Positions 23,803 to 50,044 of a stretch of 64,000 nt of DNA are shown one piece after another. A program made the translations under genes and the position numbers. The notes under the pieces were generated by a model. That model saw only the letters and a list, made by a program, of their open reading frames with translations, did no database searches and was not told where the DNA came from. The stretch is from Lachnospiraceae bacterium. Its GTDB lineage: Bacteria; Bacillota; Clostridia; Lachnospirales; Lachnospiraceae. Where the stretch lies: assembly GCA_963643215.1 (NCBI GenBank), contig CAVIJY010000002.1, positions 1,073 through 65,072 of the forward strand, read 5' to 3'. How positions within the stretch are numbered: position 1 is the stretch's first letter; each line of letters starts with the position of its first letter.

Positions 23803-24675
23803 ATGGTGAATGAGATGAGCTTTACACAAAGGGATCTGACAAGACTGACCGGCATGGTCGCCGCCGGAGTCATCAGTGCATTGAACATGGTTCTGTTCGT
23901 TCAGGCCGGAGAGCTGTTTCCGGGCGGGATGGCAGGACTCACTCTGCTGCTTCAGCGGAGCGCGCTGAAGTATCTCGGTCTCGCACTACCATACTCCACT
24001 GTCAATATAGCGCTGAACGCATTTCCCGTATATATTGGCTTCAGATATGTCGGGAAAAAATTCACTCTGTTCTCGCTGTTTATGATAGTTTTAAGCAGCT
24101 TTCTGGTTGACTTCTTTGGAATATTTCAGCCATTCACAGATGACATACTTCTGATCAGCGTCTTCGGAGGCATCATCAACGGCCTTGCCAACAGCATCGC
24201 CCTGCGTCAAAACGCCAGCTTCGGCGGAACAGACTTTCTGGCCATGTACATGAATGCCAGACATGGCATGGATTCCTGGAATATGATACTCGGAATCAAT
24301 ACTGTGATACTTTGTGTTGCCGGGATACTTTTCGGATGGGACAAGGCACTATACTCCATCATATATCAGTTTGCATCTACTCAGACAGTCAAGATGCTGT
24401 ACAAGAAGTACCAGCAGATTACTCTTCTGATAGTAACCAACAGCCCGGATGAGATATGCCGTGAAATCCGGCGAACAACCGGACACGGCTCAACCATACT
24501 GCGCGCAGAGGGAGCCTATAAGCACGAAGAACGCGATATCGTCTACTCTGTGGTCAGCGCCCCCGACAAAAGGCAGGTTTTAAGCCTTGTCCACAGAATA
24601 GATCCCACCGCATTCATCAATACCATGCGCACCGAGCAGGTTCAGGGCAAATTTGTGATCGAAAAGCAGGAATAA
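23803..24675 (+). CDS. YitT-family membrane protein (DUF2179 C-terminus)
   Basis: Five or six TM helices plus a C-terminal DUF2179-like domain. It is one of only two plus-strand genes. Confidence 0.8.
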   Translation: MVNEMSFTQRDLTRLTGMVAAGVISALNMVLFVQAGELFPGGMAGLTLLLQRSALKYLGLALPYSTVNIALNAFPVYIGFRYVGKKFTLFSLFMIVLSSFLVDFFGIFQPFTDDILLISVFGGIINGLANSIALRQNASFGGTDFLAMYMNARHGMDSWNMILGINTVILCVAGILFGWDKALYSIIYQFASTQTVKMLYKKYQQITLLIVTNSPDEICREIRRTTGHGSTILRAEGAYKHEERDIVYSVVSAPDKRQVLSLVHRIDPTAFINTMRTEQVQGKFVIEKQE

Positions 24676-24689
24676 ATCTGCAAGCAGAT

Positions 24690-25286
24690 CTACTTCCGTT
24701 CATCCTTTTCTTTTTCGATCGACTTCATCTCTTCCTGCTCTATCTGCTTTGCCAGCCGCAGCGTCTGAATGATGTTCGAGGCCAGCACTGCCAGCAGCGG
24801 CAGCAATATGATCGGGAAAAATATCAGAGGATTGGAAGCCAGCCTCACAAGCTTTCCCAGCAGCAGAGACGACCATACCACCTTTCCGATGATTTCACTC
24901 TCGAATACCGGCTCATCGTCGATGCTGTGATTTGCATCACCCTTTGTCCGGAATATAAGTTCTTCGCCTGACTGCTCGATACCCACTATCCTGTGAGTAT
25001 TGACCATGCCCATGATCTGCTCATCCTTGGAATAAAAGGATATCACATCGCCCGTCCTCAGCGCACCCGGATCCTCCTCCCTGACAACTATAAACGAGTC
25101 AACCGGAAGCTCCGGCTCCATGCTGCCCGACATGACACGAAATGCCGAATATCCGAATACCTTCGGTGTATCGCCGCTCTTTGTGTTGATGGCTACAAAC
25201 AGAACATATATCGCCGCAAGAATAATTGCAATTGATATGAAATTGATGATTCCTGTTATCACTTTCCTTATCATGCTGCTTCCCAT
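24690..25286 (-). CDS. sipW: Signal peptidase I, SipW/archaeal type (copy 2)
   Basis: N-terminal TM, catalytic box VMSGSMEP, a second conserved box HRIVG, and a C-terminal TM. It is the last gene of the riboswitch R1 unit. Confidence 0.85.
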   Translation of the reverse strand: MGSSMIRKVITGIINFISIAIILAAIYVLFVAINTKSGDTPKVFGYSAFRVMSGSMEPELPVDSFIVVREEDPGALRTGDVISFYSKDEQIMGMVNTHRIVGIEQSGEELIFRTKGDANHSIDDEPVFESEIIGKVVWSSLLLGKLVRLASNPLIFFPIILLPLLAVLASNIIQTLRLAKQIEQEEMKSIEKEKDERK

Positions 25287-25352
25287 ATCACGCTCGAAGA
25301 GCTCTCCGGGGGTTCAGATCTTTGCCGCTTATACCGCGGCATACGATTCTTG

Positions 25353-27713
25353 TCATTTTCTTCGTCCGAGCACACGGCCTATGTATCCGGACAGACTTGT
25401 ATCGTTCATCTCCCTGCTCAGCTCTCTGCCAAGCTCCCGGCGATTCTCCTCTGATTCGTCAAGCTCTCTTGTCTTTTTCTCAAGCTTTGAAGTAAGCTCC
25501 TCTATGCTCGCCTCCAGCTGTGACAGTTTCAGATCATTGCATGCCCTATCCTCCGCCCGAGCCGCATTTGCTTCGTCAAGCTCTCTTTGGAGCTCTCTTA
25601 AAGGCCTTTGAGCATCGATAGTCTCCTTCAGGCTTGCATTCTCCTGTTCCTGAGCCGATATCCTCTCAAGCAGCTCCTGCTGCGCCGCCTTGAGTCCGTC
25701 AGCCGTATCTCTGAGCTTCTGAAGATTCTCCAGAGCTTTTGAAAGCTCCTCCTGCACGCTGTCGCGAGCCTTCGTCATACGATCAAGCTCTTTTGATGTA
25801 GCTATGCGAAGCTTGTCCGCCACCTTCGCTTTTTCGCTCTCGGAGGCCGCCAGATCCTTATATCTTGCTATGTCCGCGTCGCTCGCCTGTCTGATGCCTG
25901 TAATCTTTGCATTGAACTCGGATACACTCGCCGCATACTTCTCGTTGAGCTTCGCTACACTGTCCTCATGCTCCTCTTTGAGCTTCGCTACACCGGACGC
26001 ATGCTCCGCATTGAGCTTCGCTAAACTTGCCTCATGCTCCGCATTCAGCCTTGCCGTGCCGGCTGTATGCTCCTTCTCGAGCCTTGTAATGTCGGCATCC
26101 TTTTCTTCTCTCAGCTGAGTCATGCTCTCTTCATGCTCCGCGTTGAGCACAGCTATGCTCTCGTCCCGCTCCTTGACAAGTCTGGCCATATCAGCCTCAT
26201 GCTTCGCATTCTGCCTTGCTATCTTTTCATTCTTTTCCTTCACGGCAGCGGCCACCTCAGCCTGTGAAGCTGCGGTTATATCGGCCACGGTTCTGTCCCG
26301 CTCTTCCTCGGCCTTCCTTATACCCTCTGTCTTCTCGGCTTCGGCCTTCTCGATGGCTGCCTGCTTCTCCTCCTCGGCCTTCTTTATACCCTCGGTCTTC
26401 TCAGCCTCGGCCTTCTCGATAGCCGCCTGCTTCTCCTCCTCAGCCTTCCTTATGCCCTCAGTTTTCTCAGCCTCAGCCTTCTCGATAGCCGCCTGCTTCT
26501 CCAGCTGAGCGCTTACGGCAGCGGCCTCCGCGTCAAGTGCCCGATTCTCCGCCTGTGCAGCACGCGCGTCCGCATCAGCTTTTGCATTCTCAGCCTCGAT
26601 GCGAGCCTGCTTTTCCTCCTCGTACTTGGCCTCGGCCTCCAGCTGAGCCTGAGTCACCTCCTCGATGAATACCCGGCGGATCTCCACATCCGGCAGATCC
26701 GGATCATCCACCTTCATCTCCTCTATCTTCTTGATGAACTTCGGGATTCTCTGACGGTGATGCTTCCAAAGCTCCTTCGTCAGCTCTCGATGATCAGGCT
26801 CGAGTATCGACTTGAACACCGCATAGTTCATGATAAAGTTCGAATACAGCTGGAACAGATACTCCTCATCGAACTGCAGCGTCGACTCCTCCACATTTAT
26901 GGAATAGCCGACCTCCTCATATGTCTCCAGAAACTGCCACAGCTTATAGCATATCCTGTAGTCGCGATCCTTCATCAGAAGGTTCGTCCTCTGTATAGGA
27001 CTGCGCACCTGCTGACATCCGTGCATCAGCTCGCAGAATGCGCTGTTTTTCAGAGCCATGGTCATACGCCTCACGCGATCGATACGCATGAAGACATTCA
27101 TATTGTCGCTGTCATTTTCGGCGAAGCTCTGCAGATTTTTTATAGTCATCTCGATCTTATAATCTATCTGCTCGTATGCATCGTCCACATGACTTGAAAA
27201 TGTCAGCTTGTTCCTTTTTTCATCTCCCGTAGACCAGAATATAACATCCGTTCTCTTATCGATGAATCTTACAAGGCGCTGGATGAGGTGGTATATGAAT
27301 CGGTTCTCATAAAGATCATATGTCTCCTCCACAGTTACATTCAGTATCTTTATGGGATTGACCTCACCGTCTTCCGCGCTTGCTATCAGCTGCGTGTTCT
27401 GACTCAGATGACGCACGCTCTCCGAGGAAATTCGCTTGGCAAGGGATACCGGCACGACCTCCTCGTTGGTTTTCAGCATACGGCGCGGATTCTCTATGAT
27501 CTTGTTTATGGAATCCAGCGCCTCCTCGATAGTGGACAGCCACCTCTCGTCCACCACCTTGCGCAGGATCTGATTCGTTTGATTGATCTCATTCTCACCT
27601 GCGCGGATCATGGTGAAAAGATATCTGAAGTACTTGTCGCCCTCCAGCGCTCCGCCTATGTTCTCAGCGTATTTCAGATACAGATCATTAAGTGTTGCGT
27701 TGTTTTCTTCCAT
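25353..27713 (-). CDS. McrC-N-terminal/DUF2357-like protein fused to a ~440-aa coiled coil; no nuclease motif recognised
   Basis: YDLYENRFIYHLIQRL is the McrC/DUF2357 hallmark (my recollection of the family). The C-terminal half is E/K/A-rich heptad sequence with internal repeats. The start was set at MEENNATL, 8 nt after GGGAG. Confidence 0.6.
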   Translation of the reverse strand: MEENNATLNDLYLKYAENIGGALEGDKYFRYLFTMIRAGENEINQTNQILRKVVDERWLSTIEEALDSINKIIENPRRMLKTNEEVVPVSLAKRISSESVRHLSQNTQLIASAEDGEVNPIKILNVTVEETYDLYENRFIYHLIQRLVRFIDKRTDVIFWSTGDEKRNKLTFSSHVDDAYEQIDYKIEMTIKNLQSFAENDSDNMNVFMRIDRVRRMTMALKNSAFCELMHGCQQVRSPIQRTNLLMKDRDYRICYKLWQFLETYEEVGYSINVEESTLQFDEEYLFQLYSNFIMNYAVFKSILEPDHRELTKELWKHHRQRIPKFIKKIEEMKVDDPDLPDVEIRRVFIEEVTQAQLEAEAKYEEEKQARIEAENAKADADARAAQAENRALDAEAAAVSAQLEKQAAIEKAEAEKTEGIRKAEEEKQAAIEKAEAEKTEGIKKAEEEKQAAIEKAEAEKTEGIRKAEEERDRTVADITAASQAEVAAAVKEKNEKIARQNAKHEADMARLVKERDESIAVLNAEHEESMTQLREEKDADITRLEKEHTAGTARLNAEHEASLAKLNAEHASGVAKLKEEHEDSVAKLNEKYAASVSEFNAKITGIRQASDADIARYKDLAASESEKAKVADKLRIATSKELDRMTKARDSVQEELSKALENLQKLRDTADGLKAAQQELLERISAQEQENASLKETIDAQRPLRELQRELDEANAARAEDRACNDLKLSQLEASIEELTSKLEKKTRELDESEENRRELGRELSREMNDTSLSGYIGRVLGRRK
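26306..26503 (-). repeat. In-frame tandem repeat, 3 x 66 nt (22 aa: QAAIEKAEAEKTEGI[RK]KAEEEK)
   Basis: Units start at 26306, 26372 and 26438 and are nearly identical at the DNA level. Confidence 0.9.
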
Positions 27714-27793
27714 CAGATATCTCCCGGCTGCAGACAATCAATCTCCCGCGGGCTCTTCAAAAGCCGGCGGGAGGCATATCCGATCCGCAGCAG

Positions 27794-27856
27794 CGCCTCA
27801 CGCGATCTCTGCGCATGAAGGCATTCATATTGTCATTGTCGGCGAAGCTTTGCATC
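27794..27856 (-). repeat. Intergenic relic copy of an internal segment (27067-27134) of the downstream gene
   Basis: CGCCTCACGCGATC..GCATGAAG.CATTCATATTGTC...GGCGAAGCT.TGCA is shared by both sites, at roughly 85% identity by eye. Confidence 0.7.
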
Positions 27857-27866
27857 ACGCTGTATT

Positions 27867-29600
27867 TCAATACAGATTCTGGATTCTTGTCAGATAATCC
27901 TGACTGTCCCTCATCTCGTTCTTGCCGAACACCTTCTCCATGTATACCATCAGATTCTTGATCTCATCACGGATGAACATCACATTCTGACTCTCGAACT
28001 TCTTGAGAATCTTTCTTGCAAATATGTAATCAAGACCGCCCAGCTCTGTTCCGCCGCATGCTACATACACGGGGATAAAATCATACATCTGCTTTGTGAT
28101 ACGGTTTCCGAATGCAAGCCTGAAGCGGCTCTGCAGATAGTTGTCAAGCTTTACCATCTTGGCAAGTGTGGCATCGCTTATCGGATGCTCATCCTTGGCC
28201 TTCGCGAAAAGCTCACGAAGATGCGCCGATGTCATCAGAAGCCTCGGCTCCATAGGACATTCAAACGGAGCAGCCTTTTCATTCAGCTCTATGGGCATCG
28301 CACGGTCATAAACCTTGTCGGTGATGGTAAATGTGGAATCGTCGTTGTTCGCCGTTCCGATATACCATGTGTTGTCGCTAACCTTAATCTTGCCGTTCTG
28401 AAGAAGCTCCGGATCCCCCGGCCACGGAGTGGGAACCAGCTCCACGAGCCATTCCTTCTTGTCAGGCATCTCCAGTACAGAAAGCATATCCGCAAAATAG
28501 TACTCTATACGCGCGAGGTTCATCTCATCCAGCACTATCATGGTGACATCCTCTCTGAAGCCCGCCTCATATACGGCCCTCAGAAATTCTGTCTCGTTGA
28601 AGCGCTTTGAGAATTCATTGAAATATCCCAGCAGATCCGTTCTCTCCCTGAATGACGGCTGCACAGATATCATCGTGGCCGGATTGTCAAGATACCGGCT
28701 GAATGAATACGGCAGTGATGTCTTACCTGTACCGGAGATACCCTCCAGAATCAGTATCTGACTCGAGGCCATACCCGCTACAAATCTTCGGACTATCTCA
28801 GGCGTATAGTACAGATGAAGCTGACTTGCGGCAAACCTTCTGTATCCCTCGACGATCTCCTCAAGCGTGACATTCTCATTGTATGCCGGCCACTCGTAGT
28901 CCCTGTACTTCTGATCCACCGCCTCCAGCTTCGGAAAGCGTGATGTGTTCGCACGTTCCTGCTCCTCTGCCGAGCTTTTGGCCTGAGCCACTGCCGTAGC
29001 AGCGGCGGCAGCAGCATTTGCTATGGTATCCGAGCTTATCTCTGCTCCCTCGATATTGCCGCCTATTCCCATGACAGTCCCGGCTGCAGCTCCGCCCTCG
29101 CCGGATACGGCTGTATCCGAGAGAGGATCCACAAGCCCGCCGACCAGTGCGCCTGCAGAACCGGCCGCACCGGGTACGCCGTCCCCATTCAGTCCGGCAG
29201 CTCCGTATCTGGCAAGCTCCTGTGTGGGAACCTTCATGGCGAGTATCTGCTCCTTCTCATCCATCAGCTCGAGCACCTGACGGTTGAGCCTTCCTATCTC
29301 CTTGTACAGCACCATGCTGTCCTGCCCGTCCATCCTCAGAGACGCCACCAGATAGATATGCCGTATGATAAGAATGATGATCAGGATCGGTATGGCTATC
29401 AATATGATCGCAAGGATGATAGACAGAAATCTTGCAACTATATTCATTGATACAAAATACGATCTGAATATGAGAGCGTATTCTCCCCAGCCCGTGATAA
29501 ATACCTTCACAAAGCCATTGATAAAATTCACAACCCATGAAGCTATGTTGTAGATGATTCTTGCTATCAGCTCATATGCGAGCTTGAGAAATTCACTCAT
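27867..29600 (-). CDS. Membrane-anchored McrB-like AAA+ (AAA_5) NTPase
   Basis: N-terminal TM helices (ILAIILIAIPILIIILII), a coiled coil and a G/A-rich linker. Then Walker A GISGTGKTS, Walker B MIVLDEMNLARIEYYF and GTANNDDS (compare McrB GTMNTADRS). The ATG overlaps the sipW stop. Confidence 0.7.
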   Translation of the reverse strand: MSEFLKLAYELIARIIYNIASWVVNFINGFVKVFITGWGEYALIFRSYFVSMNIVARFLSIILAIILIAIPILIIILIIRHIYLVASLRMDGQDSMVLYKEIGRLNRQVLELMDEKEQILAMKVPTQELARYGAAGLNGDGVPGAAGSAGALVGGLVDPLSDTAVSGEGGAAAGTVMGIGGNIEGAEISSDTIANAAAAAATAVAQAKSSAEEQERANTSRFPKLEAVDQKYRDYEWPAYNENVTLEEIVEGYRRFAASQLHLYYTPEIVRRFVAGMASSQILILEGISGTGKTSLPYSFSRYLDNPATMISVQPSFRERTDLLGYFNEFSKRFNETEFLRAVYEAGFREDVTMIVLDEMNLARIEYYFADMLSVLEMPDKKEWLVELVPTPWPGDPELLQNGKIKVSDNTWYIGTANNDDSTFTITDKVYDRAMPIELNEKAAPFECPMEPRLLMTSAHLRELFAKAKDEHPISDATLAKMVKLDNYLQSRFRLAFGNRITKQMYDFIPVYVACGGTELGGLDYIFARKILKKFESQNVMFIRDEIKNLMVYMEKVFGKNEMRDSQDYLTRIQNLY

Positions 29601-30400
29601 ATCCTGTCATCCTTGGATTCAGTCTGTTTTTTTGCGGACTCGTCCGCCTCAAGAGCCGCCAGCCGGGCCTGAGCCTGGGCAAGCTGTCTCTTCAGCCTCT
29701 CGGCCTCTGCCGCAGCATCCTCGCGGTTCTGCGCTCCTTCAGCAGACGCTCCCGCGTTAATCTGCGCCGCTGTACCTTTATCACTGTCCGGCTGCTCTGT
29801 TCGTACATTCTGTGCCGCCTGCGCCGCGGCCTGCGCTGTTTCTATGGCCACAGCCTTCTTCAGCTGGATGCTGACCATGATCAGGTGATATACCTGATAT
29901 ATGAAGAAGATCAGCATCGGCAGAACTATCACCACCAGAAATCCCGTCGAGCTTGACAGAAAGTCGAGCACCTTGCCGAGTCCCTTGACTCTTCCCGTGT
30001 ATTTTCCGACGATATCTCCGTCCGAGATGATATGAGTATCGCTTATCTGGTTGTTATCACCCTTTGTCACATAGGATCTGTATCCGCCGCTCTCGCTTAT
30101 CTCTACGATACGGTGAGTGTTCAGCGCGTACTGATTCAGAATGATGGTATGGAAGGTTATGATATCGCCCTCCTTCAATGTCGCGGGATCAACCTTTTTT
30201 ATGATGATCAGATCTCCCGCATCAAAGGTCGGGGACATTGATTCAGTCTGAACGGACAGCGGAGTATATCCGAACAGGTTGCTTACATTGTTCACGTCTC
30301 TGGTTGCAAGTGTGGTGAAGGTAAAAAGTGCCGCGAGCAGGATGACAGCCCATAACACAACGCTTGCAAGCACCGTCGCAACCTTCTTCAAGACTTCCAT
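29597..30400 (-). CDS. sipW: Signal peptidase I, SipW/archaeal type (copy 1) with C-terminal TM and ~90-aa charged tail
   Basis: Catalytic box VQTESMSP and second box HRIVE. A C-terminal TM is followed by the coiled tail AERLKRQLAQAQARLAALE. Confidence 0.85.
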   Translation of the reverse strand: MEVLKKVATVLASVVLWAVILLAALFTFTTLATRDVNNVSNLFGYTPLSVQTESMSPTFDAGDLIIIKKVDPATLKEGDIITFHTIILNQYALNTHRIVEISESGGYRSYVTKGDNNQISDTHIISDGDIVGKYTGRVKGLGKVLDFLSSSTGFLVVIVLPMLIFFIYQVYHLIMVSIQLKKAVAIETAQAAAQAAQNVRTEQPDSDKGTAAQINAGASAEGAQNREDAAAEAERLKRQLAQAQARLAALEADESAKKQTESKDDRI

Positions 30401-30425
30401 AATGATATTGTCCTTTCATGTTCAC

Positions 30426-31226
30426 TTATTCAAAGGGGATGTTGTTCTCATCAGTGCCTGTGAACTTCATGCGGATCGAAAACTGCTCCGTTTTAAGCTC
30501 ATTTGTGCATTCCTCGTCGCTTCCCTCAAGCCATATGCAGACATCTACGGGTTTGTCCTCCCCGGCGACGGCGGAAAACAAGGCATTTCTGTCATTATAA
30601 ACCATTTCGGTATCATTTGAAATGCCGAAAAATCGCACATTATCAAGGTTTTTGCTTTCATCCCCCATATCCGGATCATATACAAGGAATTTATCATCCA
30701 CTAAAAAGCCTATCCGCATGGCTTTGACCAGCGGCGCGCTGTCCGAGACTATAAGCGTAGCCTCCTCATCCCCGTCCTGCGCCGTAAGATGGACTATCAT
30801 ATCCCTGGATGCCATAAAATGAAGTCTGTATCGGATAAAGTCTCCGCTTTCCTCAGATGCGCTCTGTCCGAACTGATATGTGAATGTGATTCCGTCGTCC
30901 GTTGTGACGGGCTCAAGAGTCTTTGTCGTGATATCAACGCCTGTGTCCTGCAGTATCCTCTCGGCTATCTGATTGAAGCTCAGCGTCTGCACATATTCGT
31001 CGATCGTCTCGTGCGCATCAAGATCAAAACGCAGCGACTGCCCTGTCGTGATGTCAAGCCCTATGCCTCGCAGGCGCGTATTGTCGGCTATCGTAAACCA
31101 CGCCGCCGTGGCTGCCGTGATACTGACAAGAGCAATCAGGGCGATCAGAATCGTAGTTCTGACCGTCGATCTTCTGCTCATATTCAGTCTGTCAGTTCCC
31201 CGCTGCATATTCCTCGTCCCCTGCAT
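30426..31226 (-). CDS. TasA/camelysin-like secreted protein with SipW-type signal (putative fibre subunit)
   Basis: Signal ...ITAATAAWFTIAD. The C-terminus is IWLEGSDEECTNE...FSIRMKFTG. Confidence 0.65.
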   Translation of the reverse strand: MQGTRNMQRGTDRLNMSRRSTVRTTILIALIALVSITAATAAWFTIADNTRLRGIGLDITTGQSLRFDLDAHETIDEYVQTLSFNQIAERILQDTGVDITTKTLEPVTTDDGITFTYQFGQSASEESGDFIRYRLHFMASRDMIVHLTAQDGDEEATLIVSDSAPLVKAMRIGFLVDDKFLVYDPDMGDESKNLDNVRFFGISNDTEMVYNDRNALFSAVAGEDKPVDVCIWLEGSDEECTNELKTEQFSIRMKFTGTDENNIPFE

Positions 31227-31262
31227 CGCCCTTCTGTATCAAAAGCTCACATCCATGCGCTG

Positions 31263-31366
31263 TGTCGGCGGCTCTCGCGCTTGCGCTATGTCGTCGGCTC
31301 TCACCCTTGCTCCATGTCGTCGGCTCTCACCCTTGCGCTGTGTCGTCGGCTCTCGCCCGACTCCCG
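31263..31366 (-). repeat. Intergenic tandem repeat, 4 x 26 nt
   Basis: Units start at 31263, 31289, 31315 and 31341 (TGTCGTCGGCTCTCACCCTTGCGCTG on the plus strand). They lie between two TasA-like genes. Confidence 0.9.
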
Positions 31367-31382
31367 CATCAGCCGCTCCGCC

Positions 31383-32273
31383 TCATTCCTGTGTCAGCGC
31401 CGCATAGAATCCGAGCTTCATGGTGACCTCACTTGCTATGATTGATTCTACACAGTCCGGATCACAGCCCTCCAGATAAAAATATATATCCACAAGAACC
31501 GGCGTATTCAGCTCGATGACAGCCAGTGAGCTTTCGGGATATTCAGTCGAATCCGCCGTCATGGTCACTGTGGATATCGCAACAGCCGGATCGTCTACAG
31601 CATTTACGCTGCTTCCGTTCACCTCCAGAACCTGTCCCTCGCTCGCCAGTGTGCTCCCTATGTATGTATTGCTGCGTCTGTCCGAGGTCTCCTGCGCATC
31701 ATCAAAATATAGAATCACCGCGCTTGAGGAATCCTCCGAGAAGACAAATCCCAGCCTTGACGCCGCCAGTATGCCGCTTGAGTTTTCGTCTGTTCCTATG
31801 CTGTCCGTACCTGAGCCCTCATCAAGATATATGGCTGCTTTCATTCCCTCAAACCGATCAGTTCTGTCTGTGCGCACCTCCATATATATCTGGCCGTGAT
31901 AGCAATATGTGCCGTTCTCGTCGATATCTACCTCTTCGTATACGCCGTATCCGTCATTACTGTCCTCGGATATGGATACCGCGTGAGCCCAGCTTTGCAG
32001 ATCGGAGGTGGATACCGGAAGCAGCATATCATCCTCAGAGGAATTGACCCGGCTTATCTCCGCTTCGTCATTCCGGCTCAGATCACCTTCACTTGTTCCG
32101 AGAAGCAGCTCCAGACCGTCCTCCCCGGTGCGACCCGAGGCGTAGCTCGTATAGACCCTCTGGTTTCCCGTAAACCACGCATATGTGGCGCTTCCCAGAG
32201 AAAAGGCAAGGATCATGATCCACGCAAACGATATAAGCAGCGTCTTCTGCATAGAGCCCATATCCATCCTCAT
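31383..32273 (-). CDS. TasA/camelysin-like secreted protein with SipW-type signal
   Basis: Signal ...LGSATYAWFTGN. The C-terminus is YFYLEGCDPDCVES...VTMKLGFYA. Confidence 0.65.
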   Translation of the reverse strand: MRMDMGSMQKTLLISFAWIMILAFSLGSATYAWFTGNQRVYTSYASGRTGEDGLELLLGTSEGDLSRNDEAEISRVNSSEDDMLLPVSTSDLQSWAHAVSISEDSNDGYGVYEEVDIDENGTYCYHGQIYMEVRTDRTDRFEGMKAAIYLDEGSGTDSIGTDENSSGILAASRLGFVFSEDSSSAVILYFDDAQETSDRRSNTYIGSTLASEGQVLEVNGSSVNAVDDPAVAISTVTMTADSTEYPESSLAVIELNTPVLVDIYFYLEGCDPDCVESIIASEVTMKLGFYAALTQE

Positions 32274-32286
32274 GCCTCATCCTCCG

Positions 32287-33153
32287 TCAATCCGAATCAA
32301 CGCCTATACCGGCAAATCCCATATTGAATCTCACATCCCCGCCCTGAACATCATTGACACAGCCGTCATCGCAGCCCTCAAGATAAAGATAATATTCCAC
32401 GGTTATGACCGTATTGGCCGGAATCAGTGCCAGCGCGCGGCTTCCCGCGGTAAAGTCGTTCTGGCCTGCCGAATATGCCATATATCCGGCGATATCCTCT
32501 GCGGGATCGGCGACAAATGCAGGATATCCGCCCGCATCGACTCCGTCAATAACGACATTTTCCTTTTCTACGGTGAGTGATGCCTCCGGAGTGGAGCCTG
32601 TCCTGTCCATGTCCAGCTGATCGAGCGCGAGTATCACACGTGCCAGCTCGTCTCCTGTGGACTCATTGCGCAATACCAGTCCGAGACGCGCCGCCTGCTC
32701 GGCGCCGTTGCCCATGGTAAAGAGCATGTCGGCTCTGTTCAGATATACATTGCAATCCTGATTTTCCGCCAGCAGATAGACATTTCCGTGAAATATCATG
32801 GCATCAAGCGTCGACTGAACGGTGATCTCCCGAAATCCGGTGGATATGCCGTTCCTGTCCTGAGCGATTGACTCATACCAGCGCTCGAGTGTGGATGTCG
32901 ATACCGGGTACAGGCTCTCGGACTCATTGTTCTGATATGAGAGCGCACACTCTGTGCCGAAGGAGCCGCTGTAGGAATCCGAAATCTTCAGATCCACGCC
33001 GCCCCGCCCTACGGAGCCCGCCATAGGCGTGATATTGGTATCAACGCCGAATGTAAACCACGCAAAAGCAGCTCCTCCCAGCGCCAGAAGCGCCAAAAGA
33101 AGCCATACCAGAGATGCAAGCAGTGTGGTTTTCCTCAGCGAATTTTTATCCAT
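32287..33153 (-). CDS. TasA/camelysin-like secreted protein with SipW-type signal
   Basis: Signal ...LGGAAFAWFTFG. The C-terminus YLYLEGCDDGCVNDVQGGDVRFNMGFAG resembles camelysin FLDNGKDQNKFQGDSIKLDFTFDAT. Confidence 0.7.
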   Translation of the reverse strand: MDKNSLRKTTLLASLVWLLLALLALGGAAFAWFTFGVDTNITPMAGSVGRGGVDLKISDSYSGSFGTECALSYQNNESESLYPVSTSTLERWYESIAQDRNGISTGFREITVQSTLDAMIFHGNVYLLAENQDCNVYLNRADMLFTMGNGAEQAARLGLVLRNESTGDELARVILALDQLDMDRTGSTPEASLTVEKENVVIDGVDAGGYPAFVADPAEDIAGYMAYSAGQNDFTAGSRALALIPANTVITVEYYLYLEGCDDGCVNDVQGGDVRFNMGFAGIGVDSD

Positions 33154-34078: not shown

Positions 34079-36118
34079 TCATTCCTCTGATTTACGGTTT
34101 GACGGACTGGCAAGCTGAGGCCTTGAATCCGTCTCTGACGATGTATCCGAGTTCTTATCACTGTCTTTTTTATCTGTTCCGTCCGTGGTTTTATCCGCGG
34201 GCTTAGTGCTGACATCGGCCTTCGGATCCGTGATTCCGTCTATCGTGAGATCGTTTATAAAATCCGTCTCGACATCTATGATACGGTTTACAATCATATC
34301 AGCCTGTGCATCATCGGCGAGTATCAGCGATGCATACTCCTGCCCCTCCTCGCCTGCGACTATATCGCTGTATATGATGTCTATTCTTTCTATCCTCGTA
34401 TCCTCATCAGCAGACATAAGCAGGATATAAGCGGCTATATCATCCTCTGTATATCCGTCTGCCAGCTTGCTGAGTCTGCCTCTCTCATCATATACCGCGC
34501 ATACCGTCATATCCTCGGCAACTGCGCAATACGAGGCCTTCCTCAGGAATCTCTGCGACAGCACTATGCCGACGGACACCGGTTCGTCAGAGGCTGCCGT
34601 CTCAGCCGCTGTTGTTTTCTCAGCTGCGGTTGTCTCCTCAGCTGCACTTGTCTCCGCAGACGCGGTTGTCTCTGCAGCTGCGGTTGTCTCTTCGGCTGCG
34701 GATGTTTCCTCAGCTACGGTTGTTTCCGCAGATACAGTTGTTTCTGCAGCTGTGGTTGTCTTCTCGGCTGCGCTTGTCTCCGCAGGCTTTGTCTCGGGTG
34801 TCTTTGTTATGATTCCGTCTGCGACATCATCGGCCTCAAACTCAAGACCGCTGCCGTCGCCCTTTGCAAATCTTATTCCGGCATCCTCCGGCAGCTCAAG
34901 CACCAGCTCTCCGGCTATCATATCGTCATCAAGCTTTGCCACCTTGAGACCCACAGTACCGTCCGCCATGGCACTCTCGAACACATTTCCGAGATACTCC
35001 TCCGCTGCTCCGAGCGTATCAGGCATGCCGGATATATATTTTGCCGATCCGTATATGTTTATCTGTGCATCATAGTATACGGGAGCGGCGCTCTGTCTGT
35101 ATTCCCTGATCTCCTCCGGGTCTATAAAAAGATAGCTGTCAAGATAGAGCATGGAGGCTCCTTCTGTGATATCTATGGCAGCATCCTCTCCGTCTGCACC
35201 ATCCTCGGCCATCTCGCAGGCTCTCTTAAAATCGGCCGTCCACACCGCCGCTGTCTCTGCATCTATTCCGTCTGTAATCTCGAGATCATAGCCGTCATTA
35301 CAGTATATAATCTCAGTATCGGAGGCTCCGGCCAGCTTCACCACCGCCGCGCCGTCATCGCATTCGTATTCTGCCAGCCATACATCATCTTCCGGCTCAT
35401 CATAAAAAGCAGCAGCAGGCTCCGTATATTCCAGCTCTGTCTCCATGCCGCGAACCGCAGCATAGCAGCCGTCATTGACGCTTACCATCACACTGTTTAT
35501 GCTCATATCTGTCTGGTCAAACCTGAGTATATAGTTTCTGCCGACCTCATCGATATAATAGCTGCAGGCCTCCAGTTTCTCTTCATCCAGATCTATGATA
35601 TATATGAGTTCTCCGTCATTTGCCACGACGGCTCTTTTCAGCTGATCAAGGCTTATCTCCCCGTCAGCTGCCGTCAGTGCAAGCGTATGCCCCTGCTCCT
35701 CGTATTCAGAGTCAAACGATATCCTGAGCTCTATATCCGGCTCTGACTTGCAGAAATATGTATTGATCGCTATGATCGTCTCCCGCTGCGCAGGGTTGAG
35801 CGTAAAGTCATGAAGATAGCTTTCTGTCCTGATTTTCTCGTCTTGAGCCTCGTATATCAGTCTGGCCGCATTCGACTTAAAGACATAGTTAAGAAGCAGC
35901 CTGTCGGCATCACCGTATTCTTCCTCTATCTGCCGTCCGAAGGCATCGAGAATCTCCTCGTTTACCGAGAAAAATGCCTTTCTCTCATCGCTTTCCTCTG
36001 ATGCCCATGTTCCCGGCGCAGCAGCACATATCATAAAAGCAGCAGCAAGAAGCATCGCAAGGCATCTCCTTGCGATGCGTCCGCATCTTATATATCTGTC
36101 TATGACAGATCGAAGCAT
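34079..36118 (-). CDS. Secreted acidic protein of unknown function with a conventional Sec signal; first gene of the R1 unit
   Basis: Signal ...AAAPGTWA/SEES. It is very D/E-rich, has an ETTAAE low-complexity segment and a K/D/S-rich tail. I recognise no family. Confidence 0.5.
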   Translation of the reverse strand: MLRSVIDRYIRCGRIARRCLAMLLAAAFMICAAAPGTWASEESDERKAFFSVNEEILDAFGRQIEEEYGDADRLLLNYVFKSNAARLIYEAQDEKIRTESYLHDFTLNPAQRETIIAINTYFCKSEPDIELRISFDSEYEEQGHTLALTAADGEISLDQLKRAVVANDGELIYIIDLDEEKLEACSYYIDEVGRNYILRFDQTDMSINSVMVSVNDGCYAAVRGMETELEYTEPAAAFYDEPEDDVWLAEYECDDGAAVVKLAGASDTEIIYCNDGYDLEITDGIDAETAAVWTADFKRACEMAEDGADGEDAAIDITEGASMLYLDSYLFIDPEEIREYRQSAAPVYYDAQINIYGSAKYISGMPDTLGAAEEYLGNVFESAMADGTVGLKVAKLDDDMIAGELVLELPEDAGIRFAKGDGSGLEFEADDVADGIITKTPETKPAETSAAEKTTTAAETTVSAETTVAEETSAAEETTAAAETTASAETSAAEETTAAEKTTAAETAASDEPVSVGIVLSQRFLRKASYCAVAEDMTVCAVYDERGRLSKLADGYTEDDIAAYILLMSADEDTRIERIDIIYSDIVAGEEGQEYASLILADDAQADMIVNRIIDVETDFINDLTIDGITDPKADVSTKPADKTTDGTDKKDSDKNSDTSSETDSRPQLASPSNRKSEE

Positions 36119-36521: not shown

Positions 36522-38828
36522 TCATCTCTCGCATACTCTGGCAAAGAGATATCCCAGGCTTCCCATCTCTTCCTTTGTGAGTATCCGATGATTTTTCTCC
36601 ATCTCCCGCCTGATGGCTACCATGATCTCCAAGAGTCCGATGGGCACACCCTGAGCAGCTGCCAGATAAGCAGCCGTGAGCGCCACATTTTTGATGATGG
36701 CTCCGGTGAATTTAAATATCCTTGCCAGCTCACGATAGTCAACCTCCGAGGCAACCGGCGCCTGCTTCGGGAACACACTGCTCCATATCTCATAGCGGAT
36801 CTGCTCATCAGGCTCCTTGAACAGGAGATAATATCTGAATCTTCTCAGGAACGCATTATCTATGGATGTCATGTTGTTTGTCGCAAGTATCGATATCCCG
36901 TCGAATTCCTCTATGCATTGCAGCAGCAAAGAGGACTCTATATTGGCAAAACGCTCATTGGCATCCTTTGCATCCATACGCTTGTTGAATATGGAATCGG
37001 CCTCGTCAAAGAAAAGCACGCTGTTGCTCTTTTTTGCCTGATCAAATATCCTTCTGATATTCTTCTCCGTCTCTCCGACATATTTGTCTATAAGCTGAGA
37101 AAGATCTATCTTGTAAAGCTCCATCCCGAGCTCATTGGCCACGACCTGCGCAGCCATGGTCTTTCCGGTTCCGGGAGGACCTGCAAAAAGCACGGTTACC
37201 CCTGAGCCGTACGGAACCTTGCTCTCGAAATTCCACTCCTGCATGACGATATGACGGTTTCTTACAGTATCGCACACATCCCTCAGCAGCGTCTTATCTC
37301 TGGGATCCATCTTGATATCATCCCATTTAAACGGCGACTCAACCTTCTGTGTATGATCCTTGAGCGGATGCCCCATGACCGCATAGCAGCTTTTATAAAG
37401 CATCCCTCGTGATACATCCTCATGCAGAAATGCCTGTCTTGCCGCCCGGTTTATCTGTCCCGGCGTCAGTGTGAAGCTGTTGGCCAGCTGCTGTATCTCT
37501 CCCTCGGAAAGAGCAAGGCTCCTGTCGCCGCTATAGCCTCGAAGATAGTATGTCCATATCCTCGCTCTTGTGACGGCATCCGGCATCTTCACTGCAAAAA
37601 GATATACACCCTCGATGTAGTCCGGCACTGTCTCCGCCTCAATCAGCATACATACCGGAACATTCACAGATCCGGCTTTTCCTGTCAGCCAGCTTATATA
37701 CAGCTTCTGCCGATCCGCAGAGTAGCCTCCCAGCCCGGATATGACCAGCATCCTGTCTGTCACTATACACTCGCGCACCGCATACAGTGTATGATCCATC
37801 AGCACAGAGATGTCTCCGGCTGCATTTGCCTCATTCAGACACTCTCCCGCATCGTACTCTATCGCACGCATACCGGTGTCTGCCAATGCTCCTGCCGCTA
37901 TAGTGTGCTTTCCCGCTCCGCGCGCTCCCCAGAGGACAATCGGAGCTGAGTATGACCTGAGACGGCGGGCGAGACTCTCCCTGTCATCCCTCATATAAGC
38001 ATACGGAGAATCCTGCGCGGAATCGTCCTCGGACGCCGCGCCGCTCAACATATGCATACCGTACAGCAGATTCAGAGAAGCCTGAGCCGCATCCGGTATA
38101 CGTCCATATGTAAGTCCTGTCGGAAATCCTGCCGCAGAAGCACTTGCCGCAAAGCCGTTGGCCTCATCCGTCATCAGCTCGTACAGCCGCATGTCAAGCT
38201 GCGGTGTCAAGTGGAATATATCCTCTGCTCCGTCGCACTCCGGGAAGAGATATCCGAGAGAATCAGCGACCTCACTCAGCATTCTGCTCACGCGGGCTCC
38301 GCCGTAAAGCCCGTCTCCGAACAGGAGATTTACCACATCATACAGACTTTTCGCCCCCACCATCGATGCATAGTCTCTGTCCAGATATACATGATAGTAG
38401 TAAATCAATGTCTCCGTCATCCAGTCCGGAAGCAACAGCCTTTCAAGCAGTATATTCAGCGCCGGGATCTTTCCTGCCGTCACGCTGACATCCCGGCGCG
38501 CGATGATCTGGTCGGCCCACAGCTGCGCGGTCTGACCCTCTGACAGCCCCCGCATGATCAGTCTTGTGCGCAGGTATTCAATTGCTCTCACACATCGTGA
38601 CAGCTCTGTTGATTCCGGTCCCGACAGCACAGTCTCTCCCACTGCAGCATCACTCGCTGTAGCATCGCGCGGCTCAAGCATCTGCAAACCACTCTTTTCC
38701 AGAAGGCTCTGCCGCTCCTGCATGATTTCAAGTATTCTCAGGTCAACGAAAACAGACAGCTCCTCGACATATTCAAAGCTGTCTGTATATGGTCTGTCTC
38801 CTGCAAATCGTACCAACGGATCATTCAT
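36522..38828 (-). CDS. Two-domain AAA+ ATPase (degenerate D1, canonical classic-clade D2)
   Basis: D1 is LWGARGAGKHT. D2 has GPPGTGKTMAAQVVANELG, Walker B VLFFDEADSIF and ILATNN..DNAFLRRF. Confidence 0.8.
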   Translation of the reverse strand: MNDPLVRFAGDRPYTDSFEYVEELSVFVDLRILEIMQERQSLLEKSGLQMLEPRDATASDAAVGETVLSGPESTELSRCVRAIEYLRTRLIMRGLSEGQTAQLWADQIIARRDVSVTAGKIPALNILLERLLLPDWMTETLIYYYHVYLDRDYASMVGAKSLYDVVNLLFGDGLYGGARVSRMLSEVADSLGYLFPECDGAEDIFHLTPQLDMRLYELMTDEANGFAASASAAGFPTGLTYGRIPDAAQASLNLLYGMHMLSGAASEDDSAQDSPYAYMRDDRESLARRLRSYSAPIVLWGARGAGKHTIAAGALADTGMRAIEYDAGECLNEANAAGDISVLMDHTLYAVRECIVTDRMLVISGLGGYSADRQKLYISWLTGKAGSVNVPVCMLIEAETVPDYIEGVYLFAVKMPDAVTRARIWTYYLRGYSGDRSLALSEGEIQQLANSFTLTPGQINRAARQAFLHEDVSRGMLYKSCYAVMGHPLKDHTQKVESPFKWDDIKMDPRDKTLLRDVCDTVRNRHIVMQEWNFESKVPYGSGVTVLFAGPPGTGKTMAAQVVANELGMELYKIDLSQLIDKYVGETEKNIRRIFDQAKKSNSVLFFDEADSIFNKRMDAKDANERFANIESSLLLQCIEEFDGISILATNNMTSIDNAFLRRFRYYLLFKEPDEQIRYEIWSSVFPKQAPVASEVDYRELARIFKFTGAIIKNVALTAAYLAAAQGVPIGLLEIMVAIRREMEKNHRILTKEEMGSLGYLFARVCER

Positions 38829-43005: not shown

Positions 43006-43080
43006 GTTCCCGTATTCCCCTTTGCAGGCTCAGGCACTCCGCCCAGCACTGCATCGCTGTATACACAAACCTGTCCTGTA

Positions 43081-47214: not shown

Positions 47215-47243
47215 GCATCTCGTCCTTTGACTATGCGAAAGAT

Positions 47244-49650: not shown

Positions 49651-49657
49651 TATACAC

Positions 49658-49686: not shown

Positions 49687-49699
49687 TTATGTTTTGTTT

Positions 49700-50002: not shown

Positions 50003-50044
50003 GCTTCTCCTCCCCTCCGTTTATCGCAGCATGCCTATGCTCCG

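Follow-up and report, generated by a model that had tools for sequence, protein, structure and literature searches.

Organization of the locus

The window (the whole 64,000-nt stretch of DNA that was analysed) contains, at positions 24690-30400, a locus for which all items of a preliminary description were rechecked on the minus strand. The genes at this locus are the following:

29597-30400, minus strand: sipW-1, 267 aa, an archaeal/ER-type signal peptidase I (TIGR02228 and Peptidase_S26)
27867-29600, minus strand: membrane-tethered McrB-like NTPase of the NxD clade, 577 aa (profile search against the PDB, hhalign, PADLOC, AlphaFold2)
25353-27713, minus strand: McrC-like protein without a nuclease, 786 aa (DUF2357, ribosome-binding site, identical NCBI protein)
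24690-25286, minus strand: sipW-2, 198 aa, a second archaeal/ER-type signal peptidase I (TIGR02228)

The overlap previously reported at 29597-29600 was confirmed by the codon coordinates: the stop codon of sipW-1 (TGA, 29599-29597) and the start codon of the McrB-like gene (ATG, 29600-29598) share the sequence ATGA on the minus strand, from which translational coupling of these two genes is deduced. The product of sipW-1 matches TIGR02228 with 104.3 bits (cut-off 51.85) and Peptidase_S26 with 24.5 bits, and has, beyond the C-terminal TM helix, a tail of about 80 aa rich in A, Q and E. The gene following the McrC-like gene had been claimed to be a second sipW, and its match to TIGR02228 (96.3 bits against the same cut-off of 51.85) upholds this assignment. 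The flanks of the locus carry housekeeping genes (leuS, a CarD-like gene, and genes for cation efflux and cardiolipin synthase) and not a defence island.

The McrB-like NTPase

The 577-aa protein is composed of three parts, in agreement with the N-terminal TM helices, coiled coil, G/A-rich linker and AAA_5 core that had been read from the sequence:

29232-29600, minus strand: aa 1-123, two long helices, i.e. a hydrophobic TM segment followed by a coiled-coil-like helix
29034-29231, minus strand: aa 124-189, disordered G/A-rich linker
27870-29033, minus strand: aa 190-577, NTPase core and helical lid

Hydropathy analysis identifies a single strongly hydrophobic segment (aa 59-80, Kyte-Doolittle value of 3.75) as well as a weaker one within aa 15-49, and the AlphaFold2 model (mean pLDDT 82.3) places helices at residues 2-49 and 54-123 (pLDDT 73-89). 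The pLDDT drops below 50 over aa 125-185, corresponding to the linker, which is predicted to be disordered and which in the family alignment (A1) is gapped and variable in length. The AAA+ core is modelled confidently (pLDDT above 90) and carries the motifs GISGTGKTS (from aa 287), VLDEMNLARIEYYF and GTANNDDS (aa 415-422), all of which are invariant or nearly so across the aligned family. These encompass Walker A (G287-T294), Walker B (D358/E359) and an N418-x-D420 signature that is invariant in the family and sits at sensor 1, and are accompanied by the conserved residues R433 and R500. The Pfam AAA_5 model scores only 18.9 bits on this protein (cut-off 22), and is matched by all 32 aligned family members at a lenient limit of E≤1 (best E-value 1.2e-8).

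When the family profile was searched against the PDB, E. coli McrB (entries 6hz4/6ut6/7vsr) was the top and sole significant match (E about 1e-5), and hhalign aligned the profile to E. coli McrB with a probability of 96.9% (E 1.3e-10). PADLOC returned the candidate system PDC-M26A (123.7 bits), a match that is confined to the NTPase domain and is also obtained with all related clades. A Foldseek search with the model ranks MoxR-type ATPases, dynein and MCM above McrB, so that the fold alone does not identify the family. Based on the sequence comparisons and the model, the protein is a McrB-family NTPase with intact catalytic residues, in which the DNA-binding N-domain has been lost and predicted membrane helices have been gained together with a coiled coil and a flexible linker.

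The McrC-like protein

The best start of the McrC-like gene is the ATG at 27713, which is preceded by a GGGAG ribosome-binding site and yields a 786-aa product identical to a protein already called at NCBI. Its features are:

26664-27713, minus strand: aa 1-350, conserved N-terminal domain including DUF2357 (aa 62-187, with a YENRF motif)
25356-26663, minus strand: aa 351-786, A/E/K-rich alpha-helical rod of 436 aa (composition and periodicity)
26301-26502, minus strand: 66-bp tandem repeat present in 3.1 copies (TRF score 320, 90% matches), encoding 22-aa repeats

The claim of a DUF2357-type beginning is substantiated by the Pfam DUF2357 (McrC N-terminal) match to aa 62-187 (47.6 bits, E 1.6e-12), PF09823 being the only domain carried by the homologues. 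Conservation across 69 loci spans aa ~5-350, and W58, E63, H102, Y135-E136-N137, P239, T243-N244 and K248 are invariant in the alignment. No similarity of the DUF2357 domain to a bona fide McrC was detected: its family profile retrieved nothing from the PDB, including any solved McrC, and hhalign gave 0.1% against E. coli McrC. The AlphaFold2 model of the domain is poor (pLDDT 55), and PADLOC found no match for the protein. As applied here, the label ‘McrC-like’ therefore denotes solely the predicted DUF2357 domain. The absence of a nuclease motif from 25353-27713 was corroborated, as neither PD-(D/E)xK nor other nuclease families were matched even at E≤10 by aa 196-353 or by the whole protein, and no conserved D...(D/E)xK set occurs in the family alignment.

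The remainder of the protein had been described as ~440 aa of E/K/A heptad sequence with 22-aa repeats. Its composition (A 18.6%, E 18.3%, K 10%, one Pro) and repeats, three exact 22-aa copies at aa 405-470 plus 11-aa repeats at aa 556-599, are as described; the heptad, in contrast, is restricted to aa 640-786 (periodicity 3.5), with aa 500-640 following a hendecad (11/3), the value observed for either stretch being reached in 0 of 1000 shuffles. The sole PDB similarity of the rod is to ATP synthase subunit b. Rod length differs between species, and the entire protein ranges from 363 to 1074 aa across loci.

Conservation of the gene order

Synteny was assessed at 77 usable loci from species-representative genomes of Lachnospiraceae, Oscillospiraceae/Ruminococcus, Erysipelotrichaceae, Christensenellales, Acholeplasmatales and Collinsella. 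The neighbourhood survey established the linkage to SipW, encoded directly upstream of the McrB-like gene at 68 of the 70 loci that could be tested. A DUF2357 gene lies directly downstream of the McrB-like gene in 64/73 loci, and sipW-2 comes next after the McrC-like gene in 45/63. A/E/K-rich helical tails are found on both peptidases beyond the last TM helix, with a median length of 68 aa for the SipW upstream of McrB (68 loci) and 61 aa for SipW-2. At four Ruminococcus loci (L045, L053, L055 and L066), DUF2357, rod, TM segment and SipW are fused in a single reading frame, and the catalytic motifs GSMEP, THRI and GDAN are present in the translation of the L053 fusion. Relatives of the NTPase that lack TM helices (e.g. 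P0154) are located beside AAA_11/AAA_12 helicases in CoCoNuT-like contexts, and those with 4-5 TM helices are without SipW. No full-length homologue was found on plasmids.

Candidate secreted proteins and c-di-GMP genes

Seven proteins with SipW-type signals are encoded within the window, where the following genes were recognized:

30426-31226, 31383-32273, 32287-33153 and 33160-~34080, minus strand: T4, T3, T2 and T1, respectively, four paralogous secreted proteins in conserved order, with SipW-type signal peptides (...T[YF]AWF...)
38998-47304, minus strand: two giant paralogues of 1335 and 1407 aa, with GAS[FL]AWYGE SipW-type signals
51931-53088, minus strand: candidate major secreted subunit of 385 aa, with an STYAWF SipW-type signal
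53481-57300, minus strand: c-di-GMP module at the cluster head, comprising an HD-GYP phosphodiesterase (55459-57300), a PilZ protein (54786-55466) and a T-family paralogue (53481-54752)

The T family is characterized by the motifs TYAWF, PVST and WLEGxDxxC, and five of its 28 members match TIGR04088 (cognate_SipW) at E≤1 (best E 2.2e-4). Most loci have orthologous sets of T1-T4 upstream of sipW-1, and phmmer detected homologues of the 385-aa protein in 58 loci. No Pfam domain was found in the giant paralogues, of which a homologue of 1003-1012 aa is present in loci L001-L004. None of the secreted neighbours has detectable sequence similarity to TasA or camelysin, and in nine of the 14 Ruminococcus-type loci scanned no ORF with a TYAWF-type signal occurs within 10 kb.

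Pfam HD_5/HD and PilZ were found in the proteins of the c-di-GMP module, whose T-family paralogue is a membrane-anchored protein of 423 aa. In L001-L004 this trio is found downstream of sipW-2, a PilZ and 423-aa-like pair occurs in L007, L012 and L013, and Ruminococcus-type loci carry an EAL and 423-aa-like pair directly upstream of SipW; HD-GYP/PilZ or EAL genes are thus linked to the module in a position that varies by lineage. The SipW-signal protein family and the c-di-GMP genes travel together with the module across phyla.

Discussion

Bell et al. (eLife 2024, PMC11090510) named the class CoCoPALM in a single paragraph, with its analysis deferred, and called its N-terminal part FtsB-like. 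Like that class, the locus encodes a McrB-like GTPase of the NxD type to which TM and coiled-coil helices are fused, and it is associated with genes of the signal-peptidase family; coiled coils occur on the McrB as well as the McrC homologue, the latter without a nuclease. As it differs in no essential respect from the description, the locus is counted as a member, which it very probably is, CoCoPALM being an already named class without experimental study.

With McrBC of E. coli K-12 the locus shares an AAA+ core alignable to EcMcrB, Walker A/B, the Nx(x)D signature, and a two-gene arrangement in which the partner has a McrC-type N-terminal domain. It differs in having TM and coiled-coil helices in place of the DNA-binding N-domain, NxD rather than NxxD, a partner with neither a PD-(D/E)xK nuclease nor detectable EcMcrC similarity, and a context of secretion genes instead of restriction. 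CoCoNuTs (CnuB/CnuC, PMC11090510) also contain NxD-clade McrB-like GTPases with coiled-coil fusions and McrC homologues often without an active nuclease; they are, however, cytoplasmic, linked to helicases, HEPN domains and other nucleases, and predicted to target RNA, whereas the present locus is membrane-anchored and SipW-linked, with no nuclease partner.

The SipW-TasA-TapA system of Bacillus and the SipW-BsaA system of Clostridium perfringens likewise encode a dedicated archaeal-type signal peptidase with its substrates, whose signal peptides end in a conserved aromatic motif (...TYAWF... in the locus). In TasA this motif is ...TWAAF..., and the Bacillus sipW-tasA operon is not known to include an NTPase. 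The locus differs in its two long-tailed SipWs, its four to seven substrate paralogues, and secreted proteins without detectable TasA/camelysin similarity. For the SipW-dependent polymer of C. perfringens, a type IV pilus apparatus driven by an NTPase was proposed to take part in export past the wall (PMC11580942). Type IV pili and type II secretion offer no more than an analogy: like the locus, they combine a leader peptidase of their own with a hexameric NTPase on the cytoplasmic side of the membrane, have larger subunits besides four ‘minor’ subunit paralogues, and show c-di-GMP/PilZ control. None of the proteins is related, their signals are class III as opposed to Sec/SPase-I type at the locus, and their NTPase is PilB/GspE as opposed to AAA+ McrB type.

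The preliminary description proposed a McrBC-derived pair repurposed at the membrane rather than for restriction, which is supported by synteny, McrB homology, the nuclease-less DUF2357 partner and the CoCoPALM description, although the expected TasA-like neighbours were not detected. A role with SipW in the processing or assembly of surface proteins, and not in restriction, is considered likely. Donor-strand polymerisation of the TasA type needs no cytoplasmic energy, so that a motor is not obviously required. The NTPase/DUF2357 pair could instead act as a regulatory switch or checkpoint which, without mechanical work on the substrates, gates SipW or positions the apparatus in response to c-di-GMP, for example at the division site via the FtsB-like TM/coiled-coil part. 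The recurrent linkage of genes for c-di-GMP turnover and receptors fits such a role, as does the long flexible linker, a poor force transmitter, and the FtsB-like designation given by Bell et al. (PMC11090510). Every catalytic residue of a hydrolysing AAA+ ring is nevertheless invariant, the McrC-SipW fusions and rigid rods suggest a fixed mechanical linkage, and neither FtsB nor DivIC is among the 25 Pfam families listed of the 74 matched by 32 family members at E≤1; a switch is rather unlikely.

The alternative already raised, in which a McrBC/CoCoNuT-lineage system within a surface-protein operon has an atypical anti-phage or conflict function, is disfavoured and seems very unlikely. Such a system could protect a pilus that phages use as receptor, or act through SipW to damage the membrane, and the ancestry in type IV restriction, sister clades that are predicted defence systems and the PDC-M26A match would agree with it, yet that match covers the NTPase domain only and is shared with all related clades, no nuclease or other effector domain or PADLOC match for the McrC-like protein was found, SipW synteny and fusion are near-invariant across phyla, and housekeeping flanks and the lack of full-length plasmid homologues also argue against it. 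The NTPase is even less likely to be an AAA+ chaperone of the MoxR class, without McrB ancestry, acting in the maturation or remodelling of a partner protein: the Foldseek top matches are the MoxR-type CbbQ, CHU_0153 and NorQ, the homologue P0006 is named ‘MoxR-like ATPase’ by JGI and a weak GvpN match exists, but the sequence profile finds only McrB in the PDB and no MoxR entry at E≤1, hhalign and the sensor 1 N-x-D signature point to McrB, and the partner is a DUF2357 rather than a VWA protein, VWA families being absent from the window genes scanned.

McrB forms a hexameric ring into which the N-terminal region of McrC inserts, thereby stimulating GTP hydrolysis, and TasA-type matrix proteins have their signal peptides cleaved off by SipW. 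By extension, the NTPase ring would be suspended beneath the membrane by TM/coiled-coil stalks, the McrC-like N-domain would plug and activate it, and the McrC-like rod and SipW tails may assemble with one another as coiled coils on the cytoplasmic side. Through this arrangement, nucleotide hydrolysis could be coupled to SipW acting on membrane-anchored precursors, in their cleavage, release or hand-over into a growing surface polymer, with c-di-GMP as on/off input. This specific mechanical coupling is put forward tentatively and is itself doubtful, and from the above we infer, rather than observe, fibre export or assembly.

The likeliest function of the pair lies in the processing or assembly of surface proteins, as a cytoplasmic SipW partner that is driven or gated by NTP; this is probably the best explanation of the locus as a whole. 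For the CoCoPALM class, the loci add to the main text of Bell et al. (PMC11090510) the McrC-SipW fusions, the pairing of SipWs that bear helical tails, a TYAWF/WxEGxDxxC cargo family with its membrane-anchored paralogue, and the linkage to c-di-GMP.

Gene order and signal peptidases

All genes of interest in the window are carried by the minus strand, where they follow each other 5' to 3' in the order T1, T2, T3, T4, sipW-1, McrB-like, McrC-like and sipW-2, T1 to T4 being four paralogous secreted proteins with SipW-type signals.

Core genes of the cluster (window coordinates, strand, description)
33160-~34080, minus strand, T1, secreted paralogue
32287-33153, minus strand, T2, secreted paralogue
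31383-32273, minus strand, T3, secreted paralogue
30426-31226, minus strand, T4, secreted paralogue
29597-30400, minus strand, sipW-1, signal peptidase
27867-29600, minus strand, McrB-like NTPase, 577 aa
25353-27713, minus strand, McrC-like protein, 786 aa
24690-25286, minus strand, sipW-2, signal peptidase

The overlap between the sipW-1 stop and the McrB-like start (ATGA) and the presence of a second sipW behind the McrC-like gene, both pointed out in a preliminary description, were confirmed, the product of sipW-2 scoring 96.3 bits and that of sipW-1 104.3 bits against TIGR02228 (archaeal/ER-type signal peptidase I; curated cut-off 51.85). Against the Bacillus SipW equivalog the products of sipW-1 and sipW-2 score 99.9 and 112.2 bits, which is below the cut-off of 190, and both retain the motifs SM.P, THRIV and GD.N, which we take to be the catalytic signature. 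A promoter and terminator scan of 24300-31400 returned nothing above shuffled expectation, so that co-transcription is neither backed nor contradicted by it. The flanks of the window are of a housekeeping nature (leuS, a CarD-like gene, cation efflux, cardiolipin synthase); amid such genes, downstream of the cluster, 18245-18976 encodes a Fic/DOC family protein (63 bits) with a HPFQDGNGRTGR motif.

A membrane-tethered NTPase of the McrB type

The AAA_5 core that had been assigned to the McrB-like protein is sub-threshold (18.9 bits) when the window sequence is searched by itself, but stands at the level of the family, of which 32/32 members match AAA_5 at E<=1. In an alignment of these 32 diverse TM-bearing members (A1), the core motifs read earlier from the sequence turned out to be invariant or nearly so, namely G287, G290, G292, K293 and T294 of Walker A, D358 of Walker B (followed by E359, kept in >=90% of members), N418 and D420, and the arginines R433 and R500. 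N418 and D420 belong to GTANNDDS at the sensor-1 position, where residue 421 is D, E or Q. An NxD sequence, most often with E or a further D in the next position, is the variant by which one major branch of McrB GTPases is defined (PMC11090510), and by its residues the GTANNDDS signature is that NxD variant.

Considering that a PDB search with the single McrB-like sequence gave midasin AAA domains only, McrB was reached in the PDB only via the family profile. With A1 as query, E. coli McrB (6hz4, 6ut6, 7vsr) represents the sole match below E 0.01, and an hhalign comparison of A1 with E. coli K-12 McrB returned a probability of 96.9% (E 1.3e-10) over 157 columns which extend from Walker A through the signature motif, so that the proposed homology to McrB is recovered by both profile approaches. 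The AlphaFold2 model of the protein (mean pLDDT 82.3, core >90) comprises helices 2-49 and 54-123, a disordered stretch 125-185, and then the AAA+ domain with a helical lid, in agreement with the coiled coil and linker that had been placed ahead of the core. As to the N-terminal TM helices described earlier, hydropathy supports one strong TM segment (aa 59-80) while leaving their number uncertain, a weaker hydrophobic stretch being located ahead of it; the topology would be either a hairpin or a single span, and under both the NTPase would be cytoplasmic. The top 50 Foldseek matches of the model include MoxR-type ATPases (CbbQ, 2r44, NorQ), dynein, MCM, Lon and BrxL, with McrB absent, and the fold therefore says just that the protein is an AAA+ of this superclade. 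The assignment to McrB is accordingly based on profile comparisons of the sequence, on the signature motif and on the gene of the partner.

Homologues of the NTPase fall into at least 8000 clusters at 90% identity (word-indexed search), and an exhaustive search of 50%-identity representatives retrieved 7697 at E<=1e-3 and 756 at E<=1e-30, among which conservation spans query residues ~210-575. One homologue (P0071) is present on 62 contigs; on plasmids no full-length homologue of the NTPase was found.

A DUF2357 partner with a helical rod

For the McrC-like gene the most likely start codon, a point of small correction, is the ATG at 27713, located behind a GGGAG site, and a protein of the same sequence as the resulting 786-aa product is already present in NCBI. 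The DUF2357 region itself was borne out: Pfam PF09823, which Bell et al. treat as the McrC N-terminal domain (PMC11090510), matches aa 62-187, a region that includes YDLYENRFIYHLI, with 47.6 bits (cut-off 23.3), and is the precomputed domain of most of the McrC-like homologues listed. Conservation extends over the first ~350 residues in 69 loci, whereas the total length varies between 363 and 1074 aa.

The preliminary description had also reported that a nuclease motif is missing, and at the sequence level this holds in each comparison made: no PD-(D/E)xK or other nuclease family matches aa 196-353 or the whole protein even at E<=10, the precomputed domains of the homologues listed are DUF2357 (or none for a few) with no nuclease family, and no D...(D/E)xK set is conserved among the invariant columns of the alignment. 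AlphaFold2 modelling of the N-terminal domain, based on a shallow alignment of close homologues (61-91% identity), gave a pLDDT of 55 and a pTM of 0.41, and Foldseek on that model returned noise (best E 0.63); with so poor a model, it is the sequence comparisons that speak for the absence of a nuclease fold, and a degenerate remnant of such a fold in aa 200-345 is possible. Homology of the N-terminal domain to McrC, which had been anticipated, was not recovered, since the McrC-like family profile (A2) matches nothing in the PDB at E<=10, hence no solved McrC, and hhalign against E. coli McrC gave 0.1%. For this reason, 'McrC-like' denotes just a DUF2357-type partner of an NxD McrB.

Residues 351-786 form a 436-aa rod which is rich in A, E, K, L and R, contains a single proline and resembles, within the PDB, only the stalk of the ATP synthase b-subunit. 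The 22-aa tandem repeats noted earlier are present as three exact copies at aa 405-470 (a 66-bp repeat), 11-aa repeats occur at aa 556-599, and the heptad character ascribed to the rod applies to aa 640-786 but not to aa 500-640, where the hydrophobic periodicity is hendecad (0/1000 shuffles reach either value).

Conservation of the module and SipW fusions

A scan of one genome per species yielded at least 593 loci, the best 80 of which were kept and belong to Lachnospiraceae, Oscillospiraceae, Ruminococcus, Acutalibacteraceae, Christensenellales, Erysipelotrichaceae, Acholeplasmatales and many Collinsella (Actinomycetota), the nearest species representative being 61% identical. Carriers retrieved by the scan include Eubacterium ruminantium FB3002, Ruminococcus sp. 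FC2018 and a Collinsella isolate, which are regarded as tractable. Six-frame ORFs of the loci were searched with the window proteins, and counts refer to 77 usable loci including the metagenome locus L001. The proposed linkage to sipW extends across this set: SipW is located directly upstream of the NTPase in 68 of the 70 testable loci, and a DUF2357 protein directly downstream of it in 64/73, while a second SipW comes next in 45/63 loci, or in 48/63 if fused copies are included (automated count).

In four Ruminococcus-type loci, all without a separate downstream SipW, Pfam analysis revealed a DUF2357 protein of ~990 aa ending in Peptidase_S26; three of these four were scored as fused by the automated synteny count.

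DUF2357/rod proteins fused in frame to a complete SipW (locus coordinates)
L045, 7353-10307
L053, 11787-14765
L055, 9828-12824
L066, 11595-14564

The L053 protein carries in a single frame DUF2357, an E/R-rich helix, a TM helix, SipW (GSMEP/THRI/GDAN), a further TM helix and a charged tail. Such fusions speak in favour of the McrC-like protein and SipW being physically linked, and place the DUF2357 domain and the rod on the cytoplasmic side. The upstream SipW possesses, after its last TM helix, an A/E/K-rich tail with a median length of 68 aa (68 loci), the tail of the downstream SipW having a median of 61 aa.

In the nearest TM-less representatives the N-terminus measures ~400-500 aa, and one such relative sits behind two AAA_11/AAA_12 helicases, as in CoCoNuT systems. 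Relatives with 4-5 TM helices are each encoded next to a ~480-aa partner, forming a pair of genes in whose vicinity SipW is missing, and this clade is another membrane-associated McrBC derivative.

Pairs with 4-5 TM helices in the McrB-like protein (locus coordinates)
L088, 2723-6144
L089, 1797-5017, the only one of the two in which a DUF2357 match of the partner is recorded

The Collinsella loci (L014-L042, L068) contain the whole module including four ordered paralogues. Their NTPases are 56-58% identical to that of the window, which is similar to the identity of Lachnospiraceae loci and suggests transfer between phyla. The module was also seen on one Bifidobacterium catenulatum contig and on one contig of a 'Bacteroidaceae' MAG, occurrences that may represent binning errors.

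Candidate cargo, cluster neighbours and c-di-GMP genes

Seven window proteins, i.e. T1-T4, a 385-aa protein and two giant paralogues, share a hydrophobic N-terminus ending ...T[YF]AW[FY]...

Further genes of the cluster (window coordinates, strand where recorded, description)
51931-53088, minus strand, 385-aa secreted protein with SipW-type signal motif
53481-57300, minus strand, HD-GYP, PilZ and 423-aa paralogue, head of the cluster
53481-54752, minus strand, the 423-aa paralogue of the secreted family, with the same C-terminal motif
38998-43005 (1335 aa) and 43081-47304 (1407 aa), two tandem giant paralogues, no Pfam domain

TIGR04088, the SipW-dependent-type signal peptide, is matched by 5/28 members of the secreted family at E<=1 (best E 2.2e-4). 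By analogy with the TasA cleavage site, the window cargo would presumably be cut after Ala (TYA|WF). Common to the family are PVST and, near the C-terminus, W[LM]EGxDxxC (also W[LM]EGxD(P)xC), in which G, D and C are invariant. As to the TasA-like fibre context suggested in the preliminary description, the neighbouring proteins have putative SipW-type signals but no detectable similarity to TasA or camelysin: Peptidase_M73 (the TasA/camelysin fold, which polymerises by donor-strand exchange) is matched by 2/28 members only, at E 0.078, and the family profile gives no PDB match at E<=10. Kinship to TasA/camelysin was not detected in these Pfam and PDB sequence searches, and the secreted paralogues may therefore constitute an undescribed family of SipW substrates. 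The 385-aa protein is without a match on plasmids. The N-termini of the giant paralogues are nearly identical, reading GAS[FL]AWYGE...VTYVARYFESGDG, and the two proteins are candidates for tip or adhesin proteins.

Several other genes lie within or next to the cluster. A 768-aa protein (36522-38828) combines a ~500-aa N-terminus with a C-terminal classic AAA domain (PF00004, 119 bits), has IetA/IteA-like and Cdc48-like proteins as best NCBIfam and PADLOC matches, and is without a same-position counterpart in other loci, where one weak opposite-strand match was found (L055). The 679-aa product of 34079-36118, which has an ordinary signal peptide and a T/A/E-rich low-complexity repeat (AETT-like), belongs to no Pfam family and lacks homologues in other loci. 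At 49610-51810 two plus-strand genes, one of which encodes an AAA_14/DUF4143 ATPase, break the minus-strand cluster at a G+C dip to 0.447 and may represent an insertion. Immediately upstream of the HD-GYP gene, 57346-59118 encodes a 590-aa protein with choline-binding/cell-wall-binding repeats.

Genes related to c-di-GMP accompany the system at a position that varies by lineage. In L001-L004 the trio of HD-GYP, PilZ and 423-aa paralogue is located after sipW-2 (L001:14532-18348), in L007, L012 and L013 PilZ occurs with a paralogue of the 423-aa type, and in Ruminococcus-type loci a ~255-aa EAL protein and a paralogue are found upstream of SipW (e.g. L048:7777-9270), homologues of the 423-aa paralogue being directly upstream of SipW in such loci. 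From its sequence, the membrane anchor of the 423-aa paralogue looks uncleaved. A c-di-GMP-type gene is within reach in 29/80 genome-scan loci (the best 80 of at least 593) and in 20 of the 42 loci of >=18 kb.

Relation to the CoCoPALM class

The system matches point for point the CoCoPALM class of Bell, Makarova, Wolf and Koonin (PMC11090510): its NxD McrB-like GTPase carries TM and coiled-coil helices (TM aa 59-80, helix 54-123), SipW signal peptidases are located on both sides in the window, and coiled coils are present on both partners (helix 81-123 of the McrB-like protein, the rod of the McrC-like protein). The N-terminal TM/coiled-coil part of CoCoPALM was described as FtsB-like (PMC11090510); FtsB/DivIC is absent among the 25 families listed of the 74 matched by McrB-like members. 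In type IV restriction systems, by contrast, McrB recognises DNA through a dedicated domain and McrC carries a nuclease, neither of which was detected here, the N-terminus being TM/coiled coil instead. The view that a McrBC-derived motor has been repurposed at the membrane finds support in the comparative data and had been put forward in the literature before. Analysis of CoCoPALM was deferred by its authors to a later paper (PMC11090510), which was not found, the term being encountered only in that article and its preprint. Four features may be novel, namely the fusion of the McrC-like protein to SipW, the pairing of two tailed SipW proteins, a cargo family that has an anchored paralogue, and the linkage to c-di-GMP genes.

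Proposed role and alternatives

In the model favoured here, the NTPase would form a ring tethered beneath the membrane, which the DUF2357 domain would plug and activate as McrC does McrB; plugging and activation are established for McrBC (cited in PMC11090510) and are extended to the window NTPase by analogy. The rod and the SipW tails would assemble at the cytoplasmic face, and hydrolysis would be coupled, under the control of c-di-GMP, to SipW-dependent processing or hand-over of membrane-anchored precursors. Precedent for an energy-requiring step comes from the SipW-dependent BsaA polymer of C. perfringens, for which type IV pilus proteins were proposed to be needed for passage of the wall (PMC11580942).

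The main alternative is that the McrB/McrC-type pair serves purely as a switch or for localisation rather than as a motor. That the locus is a defence module is less likely: the McrB-like protein does match the PADLOC candidate PDC-M26A, on which nothing was found in the literature, but the match covers the NTPase domain only and is common to all related clades, so that it provides no evidence of defence for the SipW-linked clade; moreover, the flanking genes are housekeeping genes and plasmids lack a full-length NTPase homologue. Likewise less likely is a MoxR-type chaperone, a reading favoured by the CbbQ, 2r44 and NorQ structures returned by Foldseek and opposed by the DUF2357 nature of the partner, by the lack of a VWA family match among the window genes scanned, and by the fact that no MoxR entry is present among the PDB matches of the A1 profile at E<=1.

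Beyond the favoured membrane-motor model, it is conceivable, if rather unlikely, that CoCoPALM represents an unrecognised pilus or fibre machine of monoderm gut bacteria, in which a SipW-linked McrB-type hexamer builds a c-di-GMP-controlled polymer. Such a machine would consist of the membrane-tethered hexamer, a nuclease-less McrC plug activating it and a mechanical helical-rod link to SipW that is covalent in some species, and through nucleotide hydrolysis the cleavage of signal peptides would be coupled to the incorporation of subunits into a growing surface polymer, which the four conserved 'minor' paralogues, the membrane-anchored paralogue as its base, a major subunit and the giant proteins as its tip would make up. 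If true, parts of a restriction enzyme would here have been turned into a counterpart, in function, of the type IV pilus assembly system.

Should the proposed role be correct, a restriction-enzyme motor would have been exapted into cell-envelope biogenesis, a clear change of function for a defence module, and Gram-positive surface fibres would be assembled, in addition to the sortase-pilus, type IV pilus and TasA-type routes, by one that is energy-coupled. The system has so far only received a name, and starting points for its study are offered by the fused proteins, the linkage to c-di-GMP and the conservation of TYA|WF. Human-gut and rumen anaerobes commonly carry the family, whose role could matter for how Lachnospiraceae, Ruminococcus and Collinsella adhere, aggregate and colonise.
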